Shown one piece after another: positions 3,732 to 58,397 of a stretch of DNA of 64,000 nt. How positions within the stretch are numbered: the stretch's first letter is position 1; the number at the start of each line of letters is the position of its first letter. The DNA comes from a virus. Where the stretch lies: positions 16,031-80,030 of the IMG/VR virus record IMGVR_UViG_3300036945_000368. One strand, 5' to 3'. The notes under the pieces were generated by a model. The model saw nothing but the letters and a program-made list of their open reading frames with translations, did no database searches and was not told where the DNA came from. A program made the position numbers and the translations under genes.

Positions 3732-4630
3732 TTCCAGAAGGTTTTAAGCCAAGTCTCGCAATTGAACAAGCTAAGGTTAAGACACAACCAGCACTACGCT
3801 ATCTCAGTGAAAAGCTTGACGGTATTCGTTGTGTAATCTTTGGTGGTGTTGCGTATAGTCGCAGTCTTAAAAAGATTCCTAACCTATCAATTCAAGCATA
3901 TGTAGCGCATCACGCTACAGTACTCGAAGGTATGGATTGTGAAATTATTGTTGGTGACAAGAATGCACCAGATGTATTCACACAATCAACTTCTGGCGTT
4001 ATGCGTATTGAAGGTGAACCTGATTTTACTTTGTGGGTGTTCGACTATTACCATCCAGATAAAGTGTGGTTGGAGCGTTACAATCAGTTGCAAGATATGT
4101 ATGACCGTGGACGTTTCCCACAACGTGCCCAATTGCTTAAGCATACGTACATGCTTGATGATGAAGATATCGATGCAGCTGAAGCCTATTTCCTAGACTT
4201 AGGTGCTGAAGGTGTTATGTTGCGCGATGCACATGCTAAATATAAGTGTGGTCGCTCTGGTACAAAGAATCCAGAACTACAGAAGGTTAAGCGTTTCGTA
4301 GACAAGGAATTTGAAATCATTGGTTGGGAGCCAAAGTACCACAATACTAATGAAGCAAAGACCAATGAGTTAGGACGCACAGAACGCTCTACAGCTAAAG
4401 ATGGTATGGTAGCCCTAGATACTATGGGAACGCTCCTTCTACGTACCTCTGAGGGCTTAGAATTCGGTTGTGGTAGTGGATTCACTGACGCTTTACGTGC
4501 AGAGCTGTGGGAGATTCGTGATACACTAGCAGGTCAGCTTGCAAAGGTAAAATATTTCGATGTAGGAACTGGTTATAGCGTACCTCGCTTTCCAGTGTTT
4601 CAAGGTATTCGTCATAAAGACGACATGTAA
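3728..4630 (+). CDS. lig: ATP-dependent DNA ligase
   Basis: SEKLDGIR motif I, EGVMLR, KVKRF, CGSGF, PRFPVF. Confidence 0.95.
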   Translation: MIPEGFKPSLAIEQAKVKTQPALRYLSEKLDGIRCVIFGGVAYSRSLKKIPNLSIQAYVAHHATVLEGMDCEIIVGDKNAPDVFTQSTSGVMRIEGEPDFTLWVFDYYHPDKVWLERYNQLQDMYDRGRFPQRAQLLKHTYMLDDEDIDAAEAYFLDLGAEGVMLRDAHAKYKCGRSGTKNPELQKVKRFVDKEFEIIGWEPKYHNTNEAKTNELGRTERSTAKDGMVALDTMGTLLLRTSEGLEFGCGSGFTDALRAELWEIRDTLAGQLAKVKYFDVGTGYSVPRFPVFQGIRHKDDM

Positions 4631-7477: not shown

Positions 7478-9769
7478 ATGCGTTTTATTATCGACATTGA
7501 GAGTACAAATCTTTTACAAAACGGTTTAGATTACTCTGTAATGCCTTATGCACTGAAGCCTGATTACAAGGTATGGTGTGTTGTCATCCGTAACCTAGAT
7601 ACTAAGGCCGTGATTTCATTGGTTAAAGAAGAGATCACTAAGGAACGTATTCAGCATATCCTACGCGACTGCACCGAAATTATCGGTCATAACATTGTGG
7701 CCTTCGACTTGCCAGTGCTTAAGCTGTATGGTGTTATGGAGTATCGTGTAGGTTATCCAGATCAACCATCTACAGTGTTCGGCATCCCTTGTAAGATTAC
7801 CGACACGCTATTATGGTCAAAATTGCTCAGTCCTGATCGTTTTGGTGGACATAGCCTTGATGCATGGGGTAAGCGTTTAGGTAACCACAAAACTCACTTT
7901 GAAGAATGGGACCGTTTTTCTCAGGAGATGCTGGATTACTGTATTCAAGATACAAGCGTCAACGAGACTGTGCATTATGAGTTGATTGAAGAGCAAGGCG
8001 ATCATCCTTGGGACCGCGCATACTCTGTTGAAGTTAAACTCACAGATTTAACACTACGTCAAGAGTTATTCGGCTTTGATTTTAACGTACAACTGGCAGA
8101 GCAAAACCTTGCAGAGCTTAACAAGATGATGCAAGATATCGCTGTAAAAGTTGACCCACTGTTGCCAAAGAAGCGCATGTCTAAGGTAGCTGCAAGCTTC
8201 TACGAGTTACCTAAGATTAGATTTAAAAAGAACGGTGATGTATCATCTAACTTGCTCAAGTTCTGTGAAAAGACCGGCGCTGTATTATCTGAGAATAAGG
8301 AAACGATTGTTCTCGAAGGGAAAACATTTCCGCTGAATACTGACGAACCATTAAAGACACACGTAGATGCTGACATTGAAGATATAGATGTAGTAAAGGG
8401 TTACTTGATTTCATTAGGTTGGGAACCAACAGAAGTTAAAGAACGTGACATTGTTAAGAAGACAGATAAATCAATTCGTACCTATGCGGAAATCTTAGTT
8501 GCTATTGAACGCTACGTTGCACAAACCGAAACGTCTGTATTCCGTGAGTTGCGCTTAGACTTGATTGGCTGCAGTATGAACAATCTAAAACGTTATTTAG
8601 AAGGTAAGATTGATGGTAGCAAGCCAATCTATCTACCCACTACACCGAAGCTGACAGTAGGCGTTGAAAAAGAAATCTGTCCTGCACTAATTCAGTTAGG
8701 TGAGAAAGCCGACTTCGTGAAAGATGTTGTGCATTACTACACGTACCGTCACCGCCGCAATTCAATTGCTGGTGGTGTACTGGATGAAGATGGCGACCCT
8801 GTAACTGGTTTCTTAAGTAACGTCCGTGAAGATGGTCGTATTCCTACGCCTGCAGATACTTTAGGCGCTAATACTGGTAGGTATCGTCACAAGATTGTAT
8901 GTAATGTTCCTCGTGTAACTTCGTTATATGGTGAGCAAATGCGTAACTTATTCGGCGCTGGTAAAGGGTTGTGGCAACTAGGCTATGACTTTGCATCACT
9001 AGAAGCTCGTGTAATGGGTCACTACGTATTGCCATACACTGATGGGGAAGCATTGGCTATTTCATTGATTGCAGAGAAGCCCAACGATATTCATAGTATC
9101 AACGCACGTAAATTAGGTATTGACCGTAACTCAGCGAAGTCATTTAGCTACGCTGCTATTTACGGTGCTCAACCTAAGAAGCTTGCAAAGATGCTAGGTA
9201 TTTCATTAGACGAAGCTAAGGTACTATTCAACAACTATTGGGATGCTGTACCTGCATTGAAGCAGTTAAAAGAAGACTTAGAGAAAGCATGGGTATCACG
9301 CGATAAGAAGCACATTAAAGGGTTGGATGGTCGTCTACTATCAACACGTAGTAAACACAGCCTTATTAACGTTCTATTTCAATCTGGCGGTGCTATTGCT
9401 GCTAAGTGGTCTGCTGTTCGTTTAGCTCAAGCTATGGAAGAGCGTGGTATCTTGGGTGACCCGTTTGTTAACGATAAAACCGAAGCTAAGGTGTGGTGGT
9501 TGATTCACATGCATGACGAACAACAAATGGCTTGTCACCCTTCATTGATGCAAGTTAAGAGTTTTGCTACCGATGATGAAGCTAAGGCTGCACTATGCGA
9601 AGGTTCTAGTGCAATTGGTCACGGTTCTAAGGGGGCATATGTTGGTTTTAAGACACAGCCAGTTGAGTGCATTGATATCGGTATCAAGCAAGCGGTTAAG
9701 GAGTTAGGTTTAAGAGTTGAGTTAGGCTTTGAGTGGATACCCGGTATGTCTTGGGGACAATGCCATTGA
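7478..9769 (+). CDS. polA: DNA polymerase family A (T7-like) with 3'-5' exonuclease
   Basis: ExoI DIES, ExoII GHNIVAFD, ExoIII YCIQD; motif A DFASLE, motif B RNSAKSFSYAAIYG, motif C HDE. Confidence 0.95.
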   Translation: MRFIIDIESTNLLQNGLDYSVMPYALKPDYKVWCVVIRNLDTKAVISLVKEEITKERIQHILRDCTEIIGHNIVAFDLPVLKLYGVMEYRVGYPDQPSTVFGIPCKITDTLLWSKLLSPDRFGGHSLDAWGKRLGNHKTHFEEWDRFSQEMLDYCIQDTSVNETVHYELIEEQGDHPWDRAYSVEVKLTDLTLRQELFGFDFNVQLAEQNLAELNKMMQDIAVKVDPLLPKKRMSKVAASFYELPKIRFKKNGDVSSNLLKFCEKTGAVLSENKETIVLEGKTFPLNTDEPLKTHVDADIEDIDVVKGYLISLGWEPTEVKERDIVKKTDKSIRTYAEILVAIERYVAQTETSVFRELRLDLIGCSMNNLKRYLEGKIDGSKPIYLPTTPKLTVGVEKEICPALIQLGEKADFVKDVVHYYTYRHRRNSIAGGVLDEDGDPVTGFLSNVREDGRIPTPADTLGANTGRYRHKIVCNVPRVTSLYGEQMRNLFGAGKGLWQLGYDFASLEARVMGHYVLPYTDGEALAISLIAEKPNDIHSINARKLGIDRNSAKSFSYAAIYGAQPKKLAKMLGISLDEAKVLFNNYWDAVPALKQLKEDLEKAWVSRDKKHIKGLDGRLLSTRSKHSLINVLFQSGGAIAAKWSAVRLAQAMEERGILGDPFVNDKTEAKVWWLIHMHDEQQMACHPSLMQVKSFATDDEAKAALCEGSSAIGHGSKGAYVGFKTQPVECIDIGIKQAVKELGLRVELGFEWIPGMSWGQCH

Positions 9770-9824
9770 TTGTTGCAAATGCTAATTTGTATGCTATACT
9801 GCATGCATCTTGAAAGGATTAGAA

Positions 9825-10028
9825 ATGTTGCGAGGAATATCACTTGACTATGAAACTGCAGACAGAATCACTGTGCTGGTTCTTAAAGAACAACTGAGCT
9901 TTATGCAAGAATCATTAAGAGCAAAACTGGAAGATGACAAGTACCTACACCCAACTGACTCAGAACTGTATACAGAAAAGTATATTCCATCAATAAAAAT
10001 GTTATTAGAATATTTTGGAGAACAGTGA
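9825..10028 (+). CDS. hypothetical protein
   Basis: ORF, SD AAGGA, promoter-like TTGCAA...TATACT upstream. Confidence 0.7.
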   Translation: MLRGISLDYETADRITVLVLKEQLSFMQESLRAKLEDDKYLHPTDSELYTEKYIPSIKMLLEYFGEQ

Positions 10029-10043
10029 ATTCTATGTTATAAT
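10015..10043 (+). promoter_or_regulatory. sigma70-type promoter for the tRNA-Arg operon
   Basis: TTGGAG-17-TATAAT with TG extension, ending 8 nt before the tRNA. Confidence 0.6.
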
Positions 10044-10051
10044 GCAATTAA

Positions 10052-10126
10052 GCGTTTGTAGTACAATGGAAAGTACAACAGGTTTCTACCCTGTGAATGG
10101 TGGTTCGATTCCATCCAGACGCACCA
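10052..10126 (+). tRNA. tRNA-Arg(TCT)
   Basis: Acceptor GCGTTTG/CAGACGC-A-CCA; anticodon arm ACAGG-TT TCT AC-CCTGT; T-loop TTCGATT. Confidence 0.92.
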
Positions 10127-10155
10127 GATAAGCCCCGCTATGCTTGTTACTCGTA

Positions 10156-10311
10156 TCCCTAGAGCCAGCAGCACACTTCAGCGCCATATGAGCATAAATC
10201 TTGCCGCATATGGGTAAAATACATGTTACAATTGGTCGTGTAACAGTACGGACCTCCAGACCTGCGGATTGTCGTCCAATAGGAAAAGACACTACAACAA
10301 CTGTTTAGGGA
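10156..10311 (+). ncRNA. putative multi-stem structured RNA (unknown class)
   Basis: Closing stem TCCCTAGA/TTTAGGGA enclosing hairpins CCATATG/CATATGG, TGTTACA/TGTAACA and TGTC.TCC/GGA..GACA. Confidence 0.55.
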
Positions 10312-10316
10312 CAGAG

Positions 10317-10431
10317 GTTATAGTTCAGTATATTTCAGGTTGGGTAAGTTAACGTGACTTACTATTTGGATATAATAGGCTAGATAATTACTAGTGCTTA
10401 TATTAAGATACGGAATATGCTGAACTATAAC
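10317..10431 (+). ncRNA. putative structured RNA closed by a 20-bp inverted repeat
   Basis: GTTATAGTTCAGTATATTTC / GGAATATGCTGAACTATAAC (only G.U deviations) enclosing two internal hairpins; ends just before the AAGGAGG SD. Confidence 0.65.
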
Positions 10432-10442
10432 TAAGGAGGGAT

Positions 10443-11246
10443 ATGAAAAATCTTTTGATTGGTTCACGAGCGTTAGCTAATTGGAAACCTGTGCCAATTA
10501 AACTAACAACCGATTGGGACATTATTAGTGCTGCTGATATTTCAACAGACAATATTGAGTGGCATGACAGATCATTCTTGAATAACTATGCCTTCGATAG
10601 TTTTGCTTCAGATGTAACTGGTGAAATTGATGGTGTAAAATTTCATGTAATGAATCCAGTTGGTTTGACGATTATTAAGCGTAGTCATTTATGGCGTGAC
10701 TTATCTTTTGGTAAGCATATTACGCACTACCACAAGTATTTAGCCACTTGGCGACAAACTTTTCATGCAAGCACTGAGCATTTATTGCAAGAGCGTACTA
10801 AGTTAACTATGGAAGCATACCCACAAGGTAATCCAAACTTAATGCAATCTGTTGAGGGTTTCTTTGATGACGCTGTAACTAAGAAATATAGTCATGATTG
10901 GTTGCATGAATTAGTTGCTTATCAATCAAAACCGATGTATACTCGGATGCAGCACAATCCAGATATGGCTTGGTGTGAAAAAGTACTATGGGATAAATTG
11001 TCCTACGAAGAACAGTTACAATGCGTAGCTGAAGAAACATATGTAATCGCTATGGAAAGATTTCTTGTACCTAAGCAATGGGATTTCCCATATCGATTAG
11101 CTTACACTAAATCTTTGGATAAAGTATGTACAACATTATGCTCAGGTTGGTTTAGAGATTTTGCTATCGATAATTACCCTAGTATTCTCGGTCTGTTTAA
11201 TGCAGACAAAATTAACGCTGTAAAAGCAATCATTGAAAAGGAGTGA
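10443..11246 (+). CDS. nucleotidyltransferase-like (Pol-beta superfamily motif) phage protein
   Basis: N-terminal LLIGSRA...DWDII resembles the hG[GS]...DhD signature; C-terminal helical domain with HDWLHE. Confidence 0.6.
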   Translation: MKNLLIGSRALANWKPVPIKLTTDWDIISAADISTDNIEWHDRSFLNNYAFDSFASDVTGEIDGVKFHVMNPVGLTIIKRSHLWRDLSFGKHITHYHKYLATWRQTFHASTEHLLQERTKLTMEAYPQGNPNLMQSVEGFFDDAVTKKYSHDWLHELVAYQSKPMYTRMQHNPDMAWCEKVLWDKLSYEEQLQCVAEETYVIAMERFLVPKQWDFPYRLAYTKSLDKVCTTLCSGWFRDFAIDNYPSILGLFNADKINAVKAIIEKE

Positions 11247-11249
11247 GTT

Positions 11250-11603
11250 ATGAGTTTACAAGATACAATCAAAGCTTTGTTTGATGAAACAAGCGATAGA
11301 ATTTTAGAGGAAGGTTTTTTCCACGAGGAAATTAGTCCTGATTATGAAGGCTATGAAGAAGACGAAGATTCTGTAGACGGTTTATCAAAAGCATTAACTA
11401 TTGCTCAGGTATCCTTTGAATGCGTAGAACAACACGGTGGCGAAGGTGAAGGTGAAGACTTTTATACTGTCTACAAATTCACTAAGGGCGATGAAACAGT
11501 ATTCGTTAAGTTTCAGGGTTGGTATCAGTCCTACAACGGGTCAGAAATGACTGGTTGGGCTTTCGTTACACCTAAGCAAGTAATGGTGACTGTATATGGT
11601 TAA
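11250..11603 (+). CDS. acidic hypothetical protein (paralogue A)
   Basis: EQHGGEGEGEDFYTVYKF...KFQGWYQSYNGSEM. Confidence 0.75.
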   Translation: MSLQDTIKALFDETSDRILEEGFFHEEISPDYEGYEEDEDSVDGLSKALTIAQVSFECVEQHGGEGEGEDFYTVYKFTKGDETVFVKFQGWYQSYNGSEMTGWAFVTPKQVMVTVYG

Positions 11604-12036
11604 AAAGACTTTACGTACTCAACTAAAAGAAGAGACTAAAACTCTTAAAGAACAAATTGCAGCCCTAATTGCTGAGAAGGAAGCAGAGCTAATTAAGAAT
11701 GCTTCTTTAGCAGATAAGGTTATCTACTTTTTTGAGGACATGCCTCGCTCTGAGGTAGAGGAAGCCATGTTTCGCGGTTATGGGACTTTACTTATTAACA
11801 ACATTAAGGCCCGTTTAAAACCACATAACATTGATTATCATCTAGTTGAAGAACTTGGCGGTGATGAAGTGGAAAGTGGAAATGAATACTGGAAGGTATA
11901 TTCATTCTATGATGGTGTAGAGGACTGTCTTATCAAGTTTGATGGGCACTATTCTTCATATGATGGTGCTGAAATGCGAAACTTTTTCGTCGTCAAGTCA
12001 ACAACAAAACAAATCATAGTATTTGAAAAAGTTTAA
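11596..12036 (+). CDS. hypothetical protein (paralogue B, N-terminal coiled coil)
   Basis: EELGGDEVESGNEYWKVYSF...KFDGHYSSYDGAEM. Confidence 0.75.
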   Translation: MVKKTLRTQLKEETKTLKEQIAALIAEKEAELIKNASLADKVIYFFEDMPRSEVEEAMFRGYGTLLINNIKARLKPHNIDYHLVEELGGDEVESGNEYWKVYSFYDGVEDCLIKFDGHYSSYDGAEMRNFFVVKSTTKQIIVFEKV

Positions 12037-12043
12037 TCTATAA

Positions 12044-12118
12044 GTGAGTGAAGCCGAGAAGTCAGGCAGCGACCTCATAAGTCGTTGGAAGCAGGAGCGT
12101 TACCTGTCGCTCACACCA
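12044..12118 (+). tRNA. tRNA with CAT anticodon (Met or Ile2), non-canonical T-loop
   Basis: Acceptor GTGAGTG/CGCTCAC-A-CCA; GCGAC-CT CAT AA-GTCGT; T-arm GCAGG-AGCGTTA-CCTGT. Confidence 0.8.
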
Positions 12119-12119
12119 G

Positions 12120-12148
12120 TTGACAAGTTGTACCAAATCTGGTATAAT
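12120..12148 (+). promoter_or_regulatory. perfect-consensus sigma70 promoter of the SSB gene
   Basis: TTGACA-17-TATAAT with TG extension. Confidence 0.85.
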
Positions 12149-12225
12149 TTGTGCTTAGGTTGGCAGACCTTAAAACTGCCACACAATAGTCAATCCTAAA
12201 GTCAACCCTAAAGTAAGGAGTTTAT

Positions 12226-12879
12226 ATGAGTTTCAACAGAGAAAAAATTTCTGGTATGTTAGTTTACGTTTCCGTTAATGAGGCTAAGAAAGCACTGCAA
12301 AAAGCTGGCGCTCCAAAGAAGCCAGATGAATGGAAAGCAAGCGTAGTAATTACCGATGAAGATTATGCAGATGATTTAGAAGCATATGCAAAAGAACTAG
12401 ATACGATGATTTCCCTCAAGAAAGTCAAACGTACTGAGTTCGAAAATATCTACAAGGTAGCACCTCCTGAAGGTGATGGAAAGAACGTATGGGTCTTTAC
12501 ATTACGCAAGAGTACTGAGCTTGGTAAAACTGGTAAACCAGTACCTGAACTCTATCAACCAAAAGCATTCGAAAAAGTCGGTAAAACACTAGTCGATATT
12601 ACGCATTCTAAATTAGTCGGTAATGGTTCATACGGTTCTATTAGCGTAGATAAGTTTGAACGTCAAACTGGTGGTGCATCATTGTTCTTAAAGAACGTTT
12701 TAGTAACAGACTTAGTTGAGTACACTCAAGCTGAGAGTAATTACCAAGCTGGTTCTGAGTTTGATGATGAAGCTGATGGTGACGATACCCCTGCAGAGAA
12801 GCCAGCTAAAGCAGCTGCTAAACCTGCTAAGGCTAAAGTCGCTAAAGAAGCTGCAGAGGATGATGACACACCATTCTAA
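12226..12879 (+). CDS. ssb: single-stranded DNA-binding protein (T7 gp2.5-like)
   Basis: VGNGS motif; acidic tail ending EDDDTPF; lies in the replication module. Confidence 0.8.
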   Translation: MSFNREKISGMLVYVSVNEAKKALQKAGAPKKPDEWKASVVITDEDYADDLEAYAKELDTMISLKKVKRTEFENIYKVAPPEGDGKNVWVFTLRKSTELGKTGKPVPELYQPKAFEKVGKTLVDITHSKLVGNGSYGSISVDKFERQTGGASLFLKNVLVTDLVEYTQAESNYQAGSEFDDEADGDDTPAEKPAKAAAKPAKAKVAKEAAEDDDTPF

Positions 12880-13348: not shown

Positions 13349-13377
13349 ACCCGAAGGATAAAACCTTCGGGTTTTTT
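13349..13377 (+). terminator. rho-independent terminator
   Basis: ACCCGAAGG-ATAAAA-CCTTCGGGT-TTTTT. Confidence 0.85.
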
Positions 13378-13393
13378 GTTAGAAAGGAAGATA

Positions 13394-14374
13394 ATGACAG
13401 AGAGAGTTTTAATCATTGATGGCGACTTAATCGCTTACCGCTTTGCTGCAGCGGGTGAACAACGCAGTGTTTCAGTAAAACACATTAAATCAAATAAAGA
13501 ACGTATCTTCAAGAATCGTACGACCTTTAAAGAATTTCTAGTTGAAAAGAAGTATGAGTATAAACCTGAAGACTATCTGATTGAAGATATTCAGACAGTG
13601 GGTAGTAAAGATTTTACATTAGGCACTATTGAGAAATTCCTAACACGGATGAAAGAAGAGACTTGGGCTGACCGTATGGAAATCTATATCGGCTCTGGTG
13701 ATACCTTCAGACATAGATTAGCCTTACCTGTAGGGTACAAGAGTAATCGTGCTGATAACTTACGACCTTTACTTTTAGATGATACTCGCCACTACCTTAA
13801 AGTAAAATATCGTGCTCATGTAGTGCCTGCCTCTGGATTAGAAGTTGATGATGTTATCACCATTCGTTCATACGAAGAGCTTGCCAAAGGTAATGACCCT
13901 ATTCTTGTCAGTAATGATAAAGACGCACAACAAAGCTCAGGTATTCAAGTACTAAATTGGCAGAAGGACCCTTGGGAATTAAAGATGATTCCAACTGTCG
14001 GTTCGTTGTACAAGGAAAAAGCTGCGGTAAAAGGTGAAGGACTAATGTTCTTAGCTTTACAAACGTTGTCTGGCGATACAGCTGACTGCTACTGTGGCTA
14101 CGATTTGTCTCAAGTTAAGTACGGACCTACAAAAGCAATGAAAGCTCTAGAAGGCGCTAAAACAGAGCAGGAAGTACTGGAGATACTAATCAGTGAATTC
14201 AAGCGGTTATATCCTGCCGAATTTACATATACTGATTGTCACGGTGTAGAACATGCAGATGCAGATTGGCGTGATATGCTTCAGATGTATTGGGAGTGTG
14301 CTTACATGAAACGTAGTTGGGATGATGGAAGTAGTTTCGTACAATTTGCTGGTGAACGAGGTGTTTACTTATGA
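13394..14374 (+). CDS. 5'-3' exonuclease (T7 gp6/T5 exo-like)
   Basis: IIDGDLIAY, YKSNR, EVDD, SNDKD, GDTAD acidic motifs. Confidence 0.88.
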   Translation: MTERVLIIDGDLIAYRFAAAGEQRSVSVKHIKSNKERIFKNRTTFKEFLVEKKYEYKPEDYLIEDIQTVGSKDFTLGTIEKFLTRMKEETWADRMEIYIGSGDTFRHRLALPVGYKSNRADNLRPLLLDDTRHYLKVKYRAHVVPASGLEVDDVITIRSYEELAKGNDPILVSNDKDAQQSSGIQVLNWQKDPWELKMIPTVGSLYKEKAAVKGEGLMFLALQTLSGDTADCYCGYDLSQVKYGPTKAMKALEGAKTEQEVLEILISEFKRLYPAEFTYTDCHGVEHADADWRDMLQMYWECAYMKRSWDDGSSFVQFAGERGVYL

Positions 14375-57546: not shown

Positions 57547-57632
57547 TGGTGGACACCCTAGGTAACGCTCCTAGCGAGTGCATAGACAACGGTTTTACAG
57601 ACCGCTTCGCCTCTTTAACGAAATATGTGTCC
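57547..57632 (-). tRNA. tRNA-Tyr(GTA), non-canonical T-loop
   Basis: GCGGT-CT GTA AA-ACCGT; long variable region; CTAGG-AGCGTTA-CCTAG; A-CCA. Confidence 0.8.
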
Positions 57633-58323: not shown

Positions 58324-58397
58324 TGGATGCGGGTGACAGATTCGAACTGCCGATGCTCCGAGCTTATGAGACTGGAGTGGTGACCGCCCTACCCGCA
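58324..58397 (-). tRNA. tRNA-Met(CAT)-like, shortened D-arm
   Basis: TGCGGGT/ACCCGCA-T-CCA; CT CAT AA loop; GGCAG-TTCGAAT-CTGTC. Confidence 0.75.

Follow-up and report, generated by a model that had tools for sequence, protein, structure and literature searches.

A tRNA-bracketed phage operon whose structured RNAs and predicted nucleotidyltransferase cassette are probably independent cargoes

When structured RNAs and an enzyme gene lie side by side between two tRNA genes of a phage, do they work together or do they only share a transcript? This question is raised by a locus in the virus record IMGVR_UViG_3300036945_000368. The stretch of DNA analyzed here, referred to as the window, is 64,000 nucleotides (nt) long and corresponds to bases 16031-80030 of this 80,030-base record, which is 98% complete. 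Between a tRNA-Arg and a second, tRNA-like gene, the locus contains two structured RNAs, a gene for a 267-amino-acid (aa) protein resembling nucleotidyltransferases (NTases) and two genes for small acidic proteins. An earlier note made from the sequence alone had proposed that these form a self-contained RNA-plus-NTase module. Based on the current evidence, it seems probable instead that the locus is a tRNA-punctuated polycistron with three functionally independent cargoes, which are the tRNAs, a set of small RNAs (sRNAs) typical of tRNA arrays and a cassette of the NTase and its partners, and that the RNAs are not a dedicated substrate or template of the enzyme.

Neither the literature nor annotation at the level of Rfam and Pfam describes the elements of the locus. 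Moreover, parting a pair that is linked, the enzyme and its partner, from a pair that is merely syntenic, the RNAs and the enzyme, tells experimenters which of the two to test. Tractable laboratory phages are available for this purpose among the relatives of RB69 and in Limnohabitans phage DC31. In the following, L-numbers denote the related loci that were compared and G-numbers denote whole virus records. Specifically, G000 is the genome of the window itself, G002 is the record of L106 and G006 is the record of L003.

Two conserved structured RNAs

The RNAs lie in the spacer that separates tRNA-Arg from the enzyme gene (10127-10442, 316 nt). The minimum free energy (MFE) of this spacer is -90.9 kcal/mol (z -2.9 relative to shuffles), and its coding potential on the + strand is limited to a single 35-codon open reading frame (ORF) with a TTG start. 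By nhmmer, the spacer is conserved directly upstream of the homologous enzyme gene in 32 related viral contigs. Domain 1 (10128-10333, + strand) is about 190-205 nt long, comprises helices P1-P6 and is matched by nhmmer at 10129-10332 with an E-value of 2e-43. Its structure was derived by hand as six nested helices plus a loop-loop pairing. It was scored on an alignment of 39 distinct copies, including six divergent ones from other phages, and the controls were the same structure with the pairing partners slid by 1-3 columns.

By every measure, the proposed structure of domain 1 is far better supported than the slid controls. Over the 39 sequences, 90.4% of the cells are paired, as opposed to 35-43% in the controls, and 30 of the 50 pairs are changed on both sides (14-18 in the controls). 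Cells with a compensatory change number 255, compared to 28-43. The covariation score is 0.365, while the slid structures score 0.06-0.07 and none of 500 shuffles reached the observed value. The covarying helices are P2, P3, P4, the inner part of P5 and both parts of P6. P1 (AGUCC/GGAUU) is almost invariant, so that it is compatible with pairing and has no support from covariation. Similarly, a putative kissing pair between the loops UCCCUA (10157-10162) and UAGGGA (10306-10311) is almost invariant and compatible with pairing.

Domain 2 (10317-10431, + strand; type 2A) is a three-way junction with 38 predicted pairs, 11 of which show compensatory change. Its closing stem of 19-21 bp (10317-10336 with 10412-10431) is nearly invariant, and its G.U pairs fall on the + strand only. 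The stem encloses one hairpin with compensatory changes and another that is hypervariable. Taken together, the covariation in both domains and their conservation upstream of the gene indicate that the two RNAs are genuine, conserved and structured, as the earlier note had supposed for this gap of about 310 nt.

Neither domain has a match in Rfam 15, for the window at E<=10 and for nine related loci at E<=1, and the two would represent structured RNA families of phage tRNA arrays that lack an Rfam entry. Mini RNase P RNA, tmRNA, Y RNA/YrlA and T-box RNA were considered as identities for domain 1 and were rejected in the absence of an Rfam match. The only YrlA (RF02553) matches score a weak 24-30 bits, well short of the threshold of 69, and they fall on T-arm/D-arm hairpins of relatives rather than on the RNAs of the window. 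These hairpin modules, in L005 (2492-2556), L008 (2387-2456) and the domain-2 variant of L003/L004, contain a T-arm (GGTTCGATTCC-type) and, after it, a hairpin resembling a D-arm, and they are the source of the weak YrlA matches.

Small stable RNAs are also known from phage T4, in which rnaC and rnaD are encoded in the tRNA cluster and co-processed with it. Compared by description, the RNAs of the window resemble rnaC and rnaD as small RNAs within a phage tRNA context. In contrast to them, they are larger (~190 and ~115 nt), have a putative kissing-loop architecture and share a strand. GOLLD (RF01998) and ROOL (RF03087) are likewise complex conserved RNAs that often adjoin tRNAs in phage or prophage DNA. 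However, the RNAs of the window are three- to four-fold smaller and have no Rfam match even at E<=10.

The shared strand is a property of both domains. The segment X' (10317-10323) takes part in two helices: it is the 3' strand of helix P6a in domain 1, and it makes up the first 7 nt of the domain 2 closing stem. On the opposite side of that stem, X'' (10425-10431) is identical in sequence to X (10290-10296), which is the 5' strand of P6a. In 39 loci, X, X' and X'' co-vary three ways, with at least six sequence types. This co-variation holds across three kinds of downstream module and is independent of what follows, either a Shine-Dalgarno (SD) sequence or, 2-4 nt later, a tRNA. Formation of P6a and formation of the closing stem of domain 2 exclude each other, and the RNA has to settle on one of the two. 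Because the helices X:X' and X':X'' share one strand, we infer that the RNA refolds either as it is transcribed or when the long stem is cleaved.

Separate occurrence of the RNAs and the enzyme gene

Copies of the RNA without the gene were found by a pattern scan of viral contigs, followed by a filter with the domain 1 profile. Domain 1 lies between tRNAs in L090, L094, L106, L107, L122 and L137, and there is no enzyme homologue within those fetched loci. The whole record of L106, the 99.9-kb G002 (94% complete), contains domain 1 and has no match to the profile of DUF7275, the family to which the enzyme belongs. In the same search, the positive controls G000 and G006 were detected at 3e-110 and 1e-106, respectively.

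The enzyme gene is likewise found without the RNA. The RNA signature is missing from four complete phage genomes of 163-381 kb, all of which encode the enzyme together with its partner. The enzyme is present in 734 deposited phages, and blastn detected the RNA only in Limnohabitans phage DC31. In L014, the enzyme gene directly follows tRNA-Arg with no RNA between them. Additionally, the place of domain 2 is taken within the lineage by different hairpin modules or even by tRNA-Met (L019, L024, L035), with the gene unchanged.

Because each of the two, the RNA and the gene, is found apart from the other, their adjacency is read as conserved synteny in one lineage. From their distribution, the RNAs are separable passengers that are not obligately tied to the enzyme. 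The proposal of a self-contained module is therefore not supported, in view both of domain 1 in the tRNA arrays of other phages, G002 among them, and of the four complete enzyme-bearing genomes. The co-occurrence of an upstream RNA in homologous loci, on which the earlier note had wanted its proposal tested, was found in the 32 related loci, but the RNA and the gene each occur apart as well.

The predicted nucleotidyltransferase

The enzyme gene (10443-11246, + strand) is preceded by the SD sequence AAGGAGG (10433-10439, + strand), which was read from the sequence and lies 1 nt past the closing stem of domain 2. The 267-aa product matches Pfam DUF7275 at 5.7e-56 and DUF7277 weakly. The DUF7275 family comprises 1,289 clusters at 50% identity, and its carriers include RB69-like coliphages and giant viruses. 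It is thus a very widespread viral enzyme family without a literature, and it nearly always travels with small acidic partners.

The structure of the protein was modeled with AlphaFold2 (AF2) on 60 homologues, with a predicted local distance difference test score (pLDDT) of 96 and a predicted template modeling score (pTM) of 0.91. When this model was compared exhaustively with 48,161 chains, the nine best matches were all minimal NTases, with Z-scores of 5.1-7.2 over model residues 1 to ~123-245. The top matches were MenT1 (Z 7.2), 6y8q_A (an entry titled 'AbiEi antitoxin'; 6.9), MenT4 (6.8), ANT(2'') (6.2) and TglT/MenT3 (6.0), and the remaining ones among the nine were 5uvd, 4ok0, LnuA and TM1012. 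Foldseek assigned probabilities of 0.98 to 5uvd and 0.93 to MenT1.

The catalytic residues agree with this fold. The Pol-beta motif is present as LIGS (G7-S8) followed by D24-W-D26-I, and G7 and S8 are conserved in 58 of 60 homologues and D24 and D26 in all 60. A third carboxylate, E39, was assigned by strand and conservation; it lies on the model strand 38-42, and the position is acidic in 59 of the 60. In the helical lobe, H82, H151, H155, E197, E198, E205 and R206 are also invariant. Judged from the model and these residues, the protein is very probably a Pol-beta-type NTase with a complete acidic triad. The NTase fold and the GS...DxD signature with a further acidic residue, both anticipated in the earlier note, are upheld.

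Searches by sequence gave little beyond the family itself. PF08843 (DUF1814/AbiEii) matched neither the protein of the window nor any of the 60 homologues at E<=1, and PF01743, the Pfam family of CCA-adding enzymes and poly(A) polymerase (PAP), matched neither the protein nor its homologues. None of the proteins of the locus was matched by PADLOC or NCBIfam. Searches of the PDB with the enzyme sequence and its profile returned nothing, a search of the ESM Atlas returned DUF7275 clusters only, and Pfam scans of longer homologues returned only DUF7275/7276/7277. A full-text literature search on DUF7275, DUF7277, PF23940 and PF23942 found no paper. An HD-type phosphohydrolase site formed by H82/H151-D152/H155/E197-E198 was considered and rejected, as only matches of Z 3.5-3.6 to SAMHD1 and HD-GYP were obtained.

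The acidic partner proteins

Directly downstream of the enzyme gene are partner A (11250-11603, + strand; 117 aa, isoelectric point (pI) 4.1), with the motifs YGGEGxG and GWYxSYxGSE, and partner B (11596-12036, + strand; 146 aa, pI 5.2). The three ORFs are tightly coupled, with a 3-nt gap between the NTase gene and A and an 8-nt overlap between A and B. A and B had been taken for paralogues, and this is confirmed by BLASTP (E 4e-12, 33% over 76 aa) and by the match of both to phrog_8206. Six residues of the family are invariant (G63, G64, G90, Y92, S94 and G97) and three more are almost invariant (E65, G68 and Y95), and the invariant motifs are GG-E and G-x-Y-x-S-x-x-G. The AF2 model of partner A (pLDDT 92.5) consists of three helices on a four-stranded sheet, and its structural matches are weak ones to NTF2/cystatin-like proteins and IraD.

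By the family profile, 71 of 83 loci have 1-3 tandem copies of a partner on the same strand, at most 1.8 kb downstream of the enzyme gene. Of the loci without a partner, four are truncated and the remainder carry the most distant enzyme homologues. The pairing persists at 35-50% enzyme identity and also in places that lack a neighboring tRNA or sRNA. On this comparative evidence, the component that co-varies with the enzyme is the small acidic protein family and not the RNAs.

The family is more varied than the two members in the window. In many relatives, a third, longer member of 158-165 aa, which is absent from the window, directly follows the enzyme gene (~3806-4303). It starts with MARTK... 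and keeps the C-terminal turn Y-S-S-Y-N-G-N-E-Y, and it was found in L008, L013-L015, L018, L020-L022, L025, L028, L029, L034, L036 and L057. In Escherichia phage JS09, which is RB69-like (L187, 2544-3338), and Pseudomonas phage M5.1 (L188, 2251-3374), both of them cultured phages, small acidic ORFs adjoin the DUF7275 homologues on the upstream side. The products of these ORFs end in GAWVSSSALC, GGWVASSHTC, QGWVSSSYSC, VDWDSSSMYC and PGWNASSQSC, and the ending GW[VN][SA]SSxxC in the RB69-like and Pseudomonas phages resembles the G-W-Y-x-S-Y turn of the window partners. Lastly, BFVD entry A0A6C0R1Z9 from Alteromonas phage vB_AmeM_PT11-V22 (383 aa) was matched by the enzyme model at E 1e-11 and by the partner model at E 6e-3, and by these model matches it may be a natural fusion of enzyme and partner. 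When the partner profile was aligned by hhalign with the C-terminal extensions of P0137 and P0179, only a 27-residue match with a probability of 5.7% was obtained.

A model for the operon and its alternatives

In the polycistron model, one transcript would start from the promoter at 10016-10043 and meet no terminator before the next promoter at 12120. This transcript would be cut at the tRNAs by RNase P, and by RNase E in the AU-rich linker that follows the CCA, with a possible RNase III cut at the 21-bp stem. Processing would then release two stable sRNAs and an mRNA for three proteins, and the competition of domains 1 and 2 for their shared strand would couple refolding to one of these events, transcription or cleavage. 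The minimal NTase, which has a MenT/AbiEii-like fold and appears catalytically intact by its residues, would form a two-part cassette with the tandem acidic partners and their invariant G-x-Y-x-S-x-x-G turn. Of the possible chemistries, the likeliest, suggested tentatively and by analogy, is that the enzyme transfers a nucleotide onto the acidic partners or is held in check by them.

The analogy is to two systems of known chemistry. In the MntA-HepT (type VII MNT-HEPN) system, the gene for a minimal NTase adjoins that for a small protein, as in the window, and MntA adenylylates HepT on a hydroxyl side chain (PMC7641770). Because of this precedent, the Y92/S94/Y95 turn of the partner is read as a candidate acceptor site. 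However, the partner differs from HepT in that it is no HEPN RNase (no Pfam match) and has an NTF2/cystatin-like sheet instead. The enzyme differs from MntA in its length of 267 aa and its large conserved helical lobe, and modification is predicted here by analogy.

The second system is that of the MenT toxins, which add nucleotides at tRNA 3' ends (PMC7450476, PMC10435456) and are controlled by MenA (PMC11375011). MenT/AbiEii proteins (PDB 8an4, 6y56, 6j7n) are the best structural matches of the enzyme (Z 6.0-7.2). Both are bi-lobed minimal NTases with an N-terminal Pol-beta-type fold and a helical C-terminal lobe, both have GS...DxD plus a further acidic residue, and both belong to two-gene modules with a small partner. 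Despite this similarity, the enzyme is not a member of MenT/AbiEii by sequence: PF08843 is unmatched, and neither this profile nor PADLOC identified the family, including its C-terminal motifs III and IV. The partner is unrelated to MenA/AbiEi, lies downstream and occurs in 1-3 tandem copies. Unlike MenT/AbiEii, the cassette is phage-borne, is located in an early/replication region and is also found in giant viruses; it is not known to be toxic or to act on tRNA. Class II CCA-adding enzymes and PAP (PF01743) also belong to the Pol-beta NTase superfamily and share a GS...DxD-type motif and a tRNA context. In contrast to these enzymes, which have a PolyA_pol head and an RNA-binding neck, body and tail, the protein of the window has no Pfam match to them, is half their size at only 267 aa, and finds none of them among the fold matches listed. 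Furthermore, the phage tRNAs of the window encode their own CCA.

Several alternatives deserve consideration. The enzyme could be a MenT-like tRNA 3'-end NTase that blocks host tRNAs or mends or marks phage tRNAs, with the acidic proteins as antitoxin-like regulators, in which case the tRNA neighborhood would be functional. The fold matches to MenT1, MenT4 and MenT3/TglT argue for this, as do the tRNAs on either side of the cassette, both in the window and in several of the more distant loci. In the bacteriophage DSS3_VP1, moreover, a more distant enzyme homologue lies ~1.2 kb from genes for RNA ligase 2 and a metallophosphoesterase. It is nevertheless rather unlikely, as the small-molecule modifiers ANT(2'') and LnuA score nearly as high, neither DUF1814/AbiEii nor PADLOC is matched, tRNAs are missing within 3-4 kb of the T4-like homologues and in the majority of the distant loci, and the phage tRNAs at the locus already encode CCA. 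The original proposal of the earlier note, restricted to this lineage, would make the two RNAs a substrate, template or inhibitor of the NTase, for instance by 3'-end tailing or as an RNA decoy loaded by the enzyme. In its favor are the position of the RNA directly upstream of the gene in the 32 related loci, the promoter shared by the RNAs and the gene, and the action of its nearest structural relatives MenT1/3/4 on RNA 3' ends (PMC10435456, PMC7450476). It is made improbable by the separate occurrence of the RNA and the gene, by the replacement of domain 2 with hairpin modules or tRNA-Met while the gene stays unchanged, and by L014, where the gene follows tRNA-Arg without the RNA.

A further reading is that, in this lineage, the operon is one ribonucleoprotein system. 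The acceptors of the NTase would then be the Ser/Tyr turn of the partners or the sRNA 3' ends freed by cleavage of the stem, and the products would be nucleotide-tagged decoys against host defenses that target tRNAs or sense nucleotides. The likelihood of this is slight; if true, novelty would extend to the RNA families, to the chemistry between enzyme and partner and to the refolding switch alike. Finally, the 310-nt region could be a cis-acting leader (riboswitch, attenuator or thermometer) that steers translation of the NTase through the alternative helices X:X' and X':X''. These helices do co-vary, and in gene-linked loci only 1-3 nt separate the end of X'' from the SD sequence. A translational switch for the enzyme gene is highly improbable, however, because the same X/X'/X'' arrangement also precedes tRNAs. 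Specifically, the same domain 1 and stem module stands before a tRNA and not an SD sequence in L019, L024, L035, L090, L106 and L107. Furthermore, the RNA is not confined to one gene family, the SD sequence lies outside both alternative helices and there is no + strand terminator between the promoters, so that the SD/terminator platform of a cis-regulatory leader or riboswitch is absent.

The polycistron model, in turn, has to accommodate some observations that weigh against it. The RNA without the gene in a near-complete genome is represented by the single record G002, and within the lineage of the window the RNA always adjoins the gene, which gives a lineage-specific functional link some, albeit low, probability. 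tRNAs near the cassette in the moderately distant loci L037, L039, L046-48 and L056 could hint at a tRNA-related role. The Z-scores of 5-7 for the enzyme fold are middling, but the assignment is considered sound because the matches agree with each other and the motif is present. Binding between enzyme and partner is only presumed, and a search with the partner profile against longer proteins found no fused enzyme-partner protein at E<=0.001. In addition, the RNA-library data (run X22) consist of contigs of relatives only, over tRNA-Arg, domain 1 and the genes, and are not evidence of transcription.

Transcription signals and public sequencing runs

The locus is flanked by genes for a family-A DNA polymerase (7478-9769) and a flap exonuclease (13376-14374), which places it in a replication/early region. 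The phage is of freshwater type with a genome of ~80 kb, and its nearest deposited relative is Limnohabitans phage DC31, in which the local gene order is identical. All of the features listed in the earlier note, namely the promoters, tRNA-Arg, the folded gap, the three ORFs and the downstream tRNA-like gene, are present in the positions it gave.

A sigma-70-like promoter (10016-10043, + strand) precedes tRNA-Arg. It reads TGGAGA-16-TATAAT, with a weak -35 and an extended -10 (TGnTATAAT), and has 10/12 matches with TG; relatives have a better promoter, TTGACT...TATAAT, at the equivalent site. The tRNA-Arg(UCU) itself (10052-10126, + strand; CCA encoded at 10124-10126) was identified by ARAGORN and by Rfam RF00005 at 65 bits, and in most related loci a tRNA-Arg(TCT) is found upstream of the enzyme gene. 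The consensus sigma-70 promoter of the next transcription unit (12120-12148, + strand), TTGACA-17-TATAAT, has 12/12 matches with TG and is kept in relatives. It starts 1 nt past the CCA of the preceding tRNA-like gene, as had been noted. As a class, promoter-like matches are not enriched, with 11 found in the region and 11.6 expected, and a promoter-like site inside domain 2 (10349-10376) was taken as chance.

No terminator-like site was found on the + strand between the promoters at 10016-10043 and 12120-12148, and the frame of promoter, tRNA-Arg, tRNA-Met and promoter recurs in relatives. This layout is consistent with a single tRNA-punctuated transcript and agrees with the tRNA-bracketed transcription unit that had been proposed. 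In two relatives, L001 (2555-2839; Limnohabitans phage DC31) and L028, an ORF for an HNH-type endonuclease lies between the promoter and the first tRNA-like gene.

Public sequencing runs over positions 9800-12300 of the window are in the form of contigs and carry no transcript ends or levels, and gaps in their coverage have no significance. A shale-gas metagenome run covers 96% of this region and probably represents the source sample. In a freshwater metatranscriptome library, contigs of relatives reach a depth of 10-30 over tRNA-Arg and domain 1 and of 2-6 over the protein genes. One run of uncertain kind contains a 194-nt contig that is identical to positions 10304-10497.

tRNA-like genes

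The second tRNA of the locus (12044-12118, + strand) has an MFE fold of -25.6 kcal/mol (z -2.2) that is a cloverleaf, with a 7-bp acceptor stem, a 7-nt anticodon loop CUCAUAA that includes U33, and an encoded ACCA 3' end. It departs from the tRNA norm in its T-loop, which is AGCGUUA instead of UUCRANY, and in a D-loop without GG, and it was missed by ARAGORN and by the Rfam tRNA model RF00005 at E<=10. Among the relatives, a canonical tRNA-Met(CAT) occupies this position in L004, L005 and L007, and L003 has none there. By its position, 12044-12118 is orthologous to the tRNA-Met of relatives, and it represents a degenerate tRNA(CAU)-like gene. Its description as a tRNA(CAT) was thus right as to the cloverleaf, the CAU anticodon and the CCA end, but the gene is non-canonical and is called by neither ARAGORN nor Rfam.

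tRNA-like genes with an unusual T-loop therefore escape the standard finders. The T-loop AGCGUUA is shared by three of them, 12044-12118 (+) and 57547-57629 (-) in the window and 2771-2843 in L137. In all three, the T-stem is 5 bp and the acceptor stem 7 bp long and the CCA is encoded, and none is called by ARAGORN or Rfam. The gene at 57547-57629 lies inside the tRNA cluster of the window; its anticodon loop is CUGUAAA (GUA, Tyr-like), and its variable arm is long. At 58324-58397 (-) of the window, ARAGORN called a tRNA-Met with the anticodon at position 30, which the Rfam tRNA model did not match at E<=1. Relatives show the reverse case, in which matches to the Rfam tRNA model of ~98 nt with a long insertion near the anticodon arm are not called by ARAGORN. 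These matches score 42-50 bits and are found in L003 (2572-2670), L005 (2530-2628), L012 (2618-2715), L019 (2449-2546) and L008 (2428-2528), where they are placed between tRNA-Arg and domain 1; the window has no such match.

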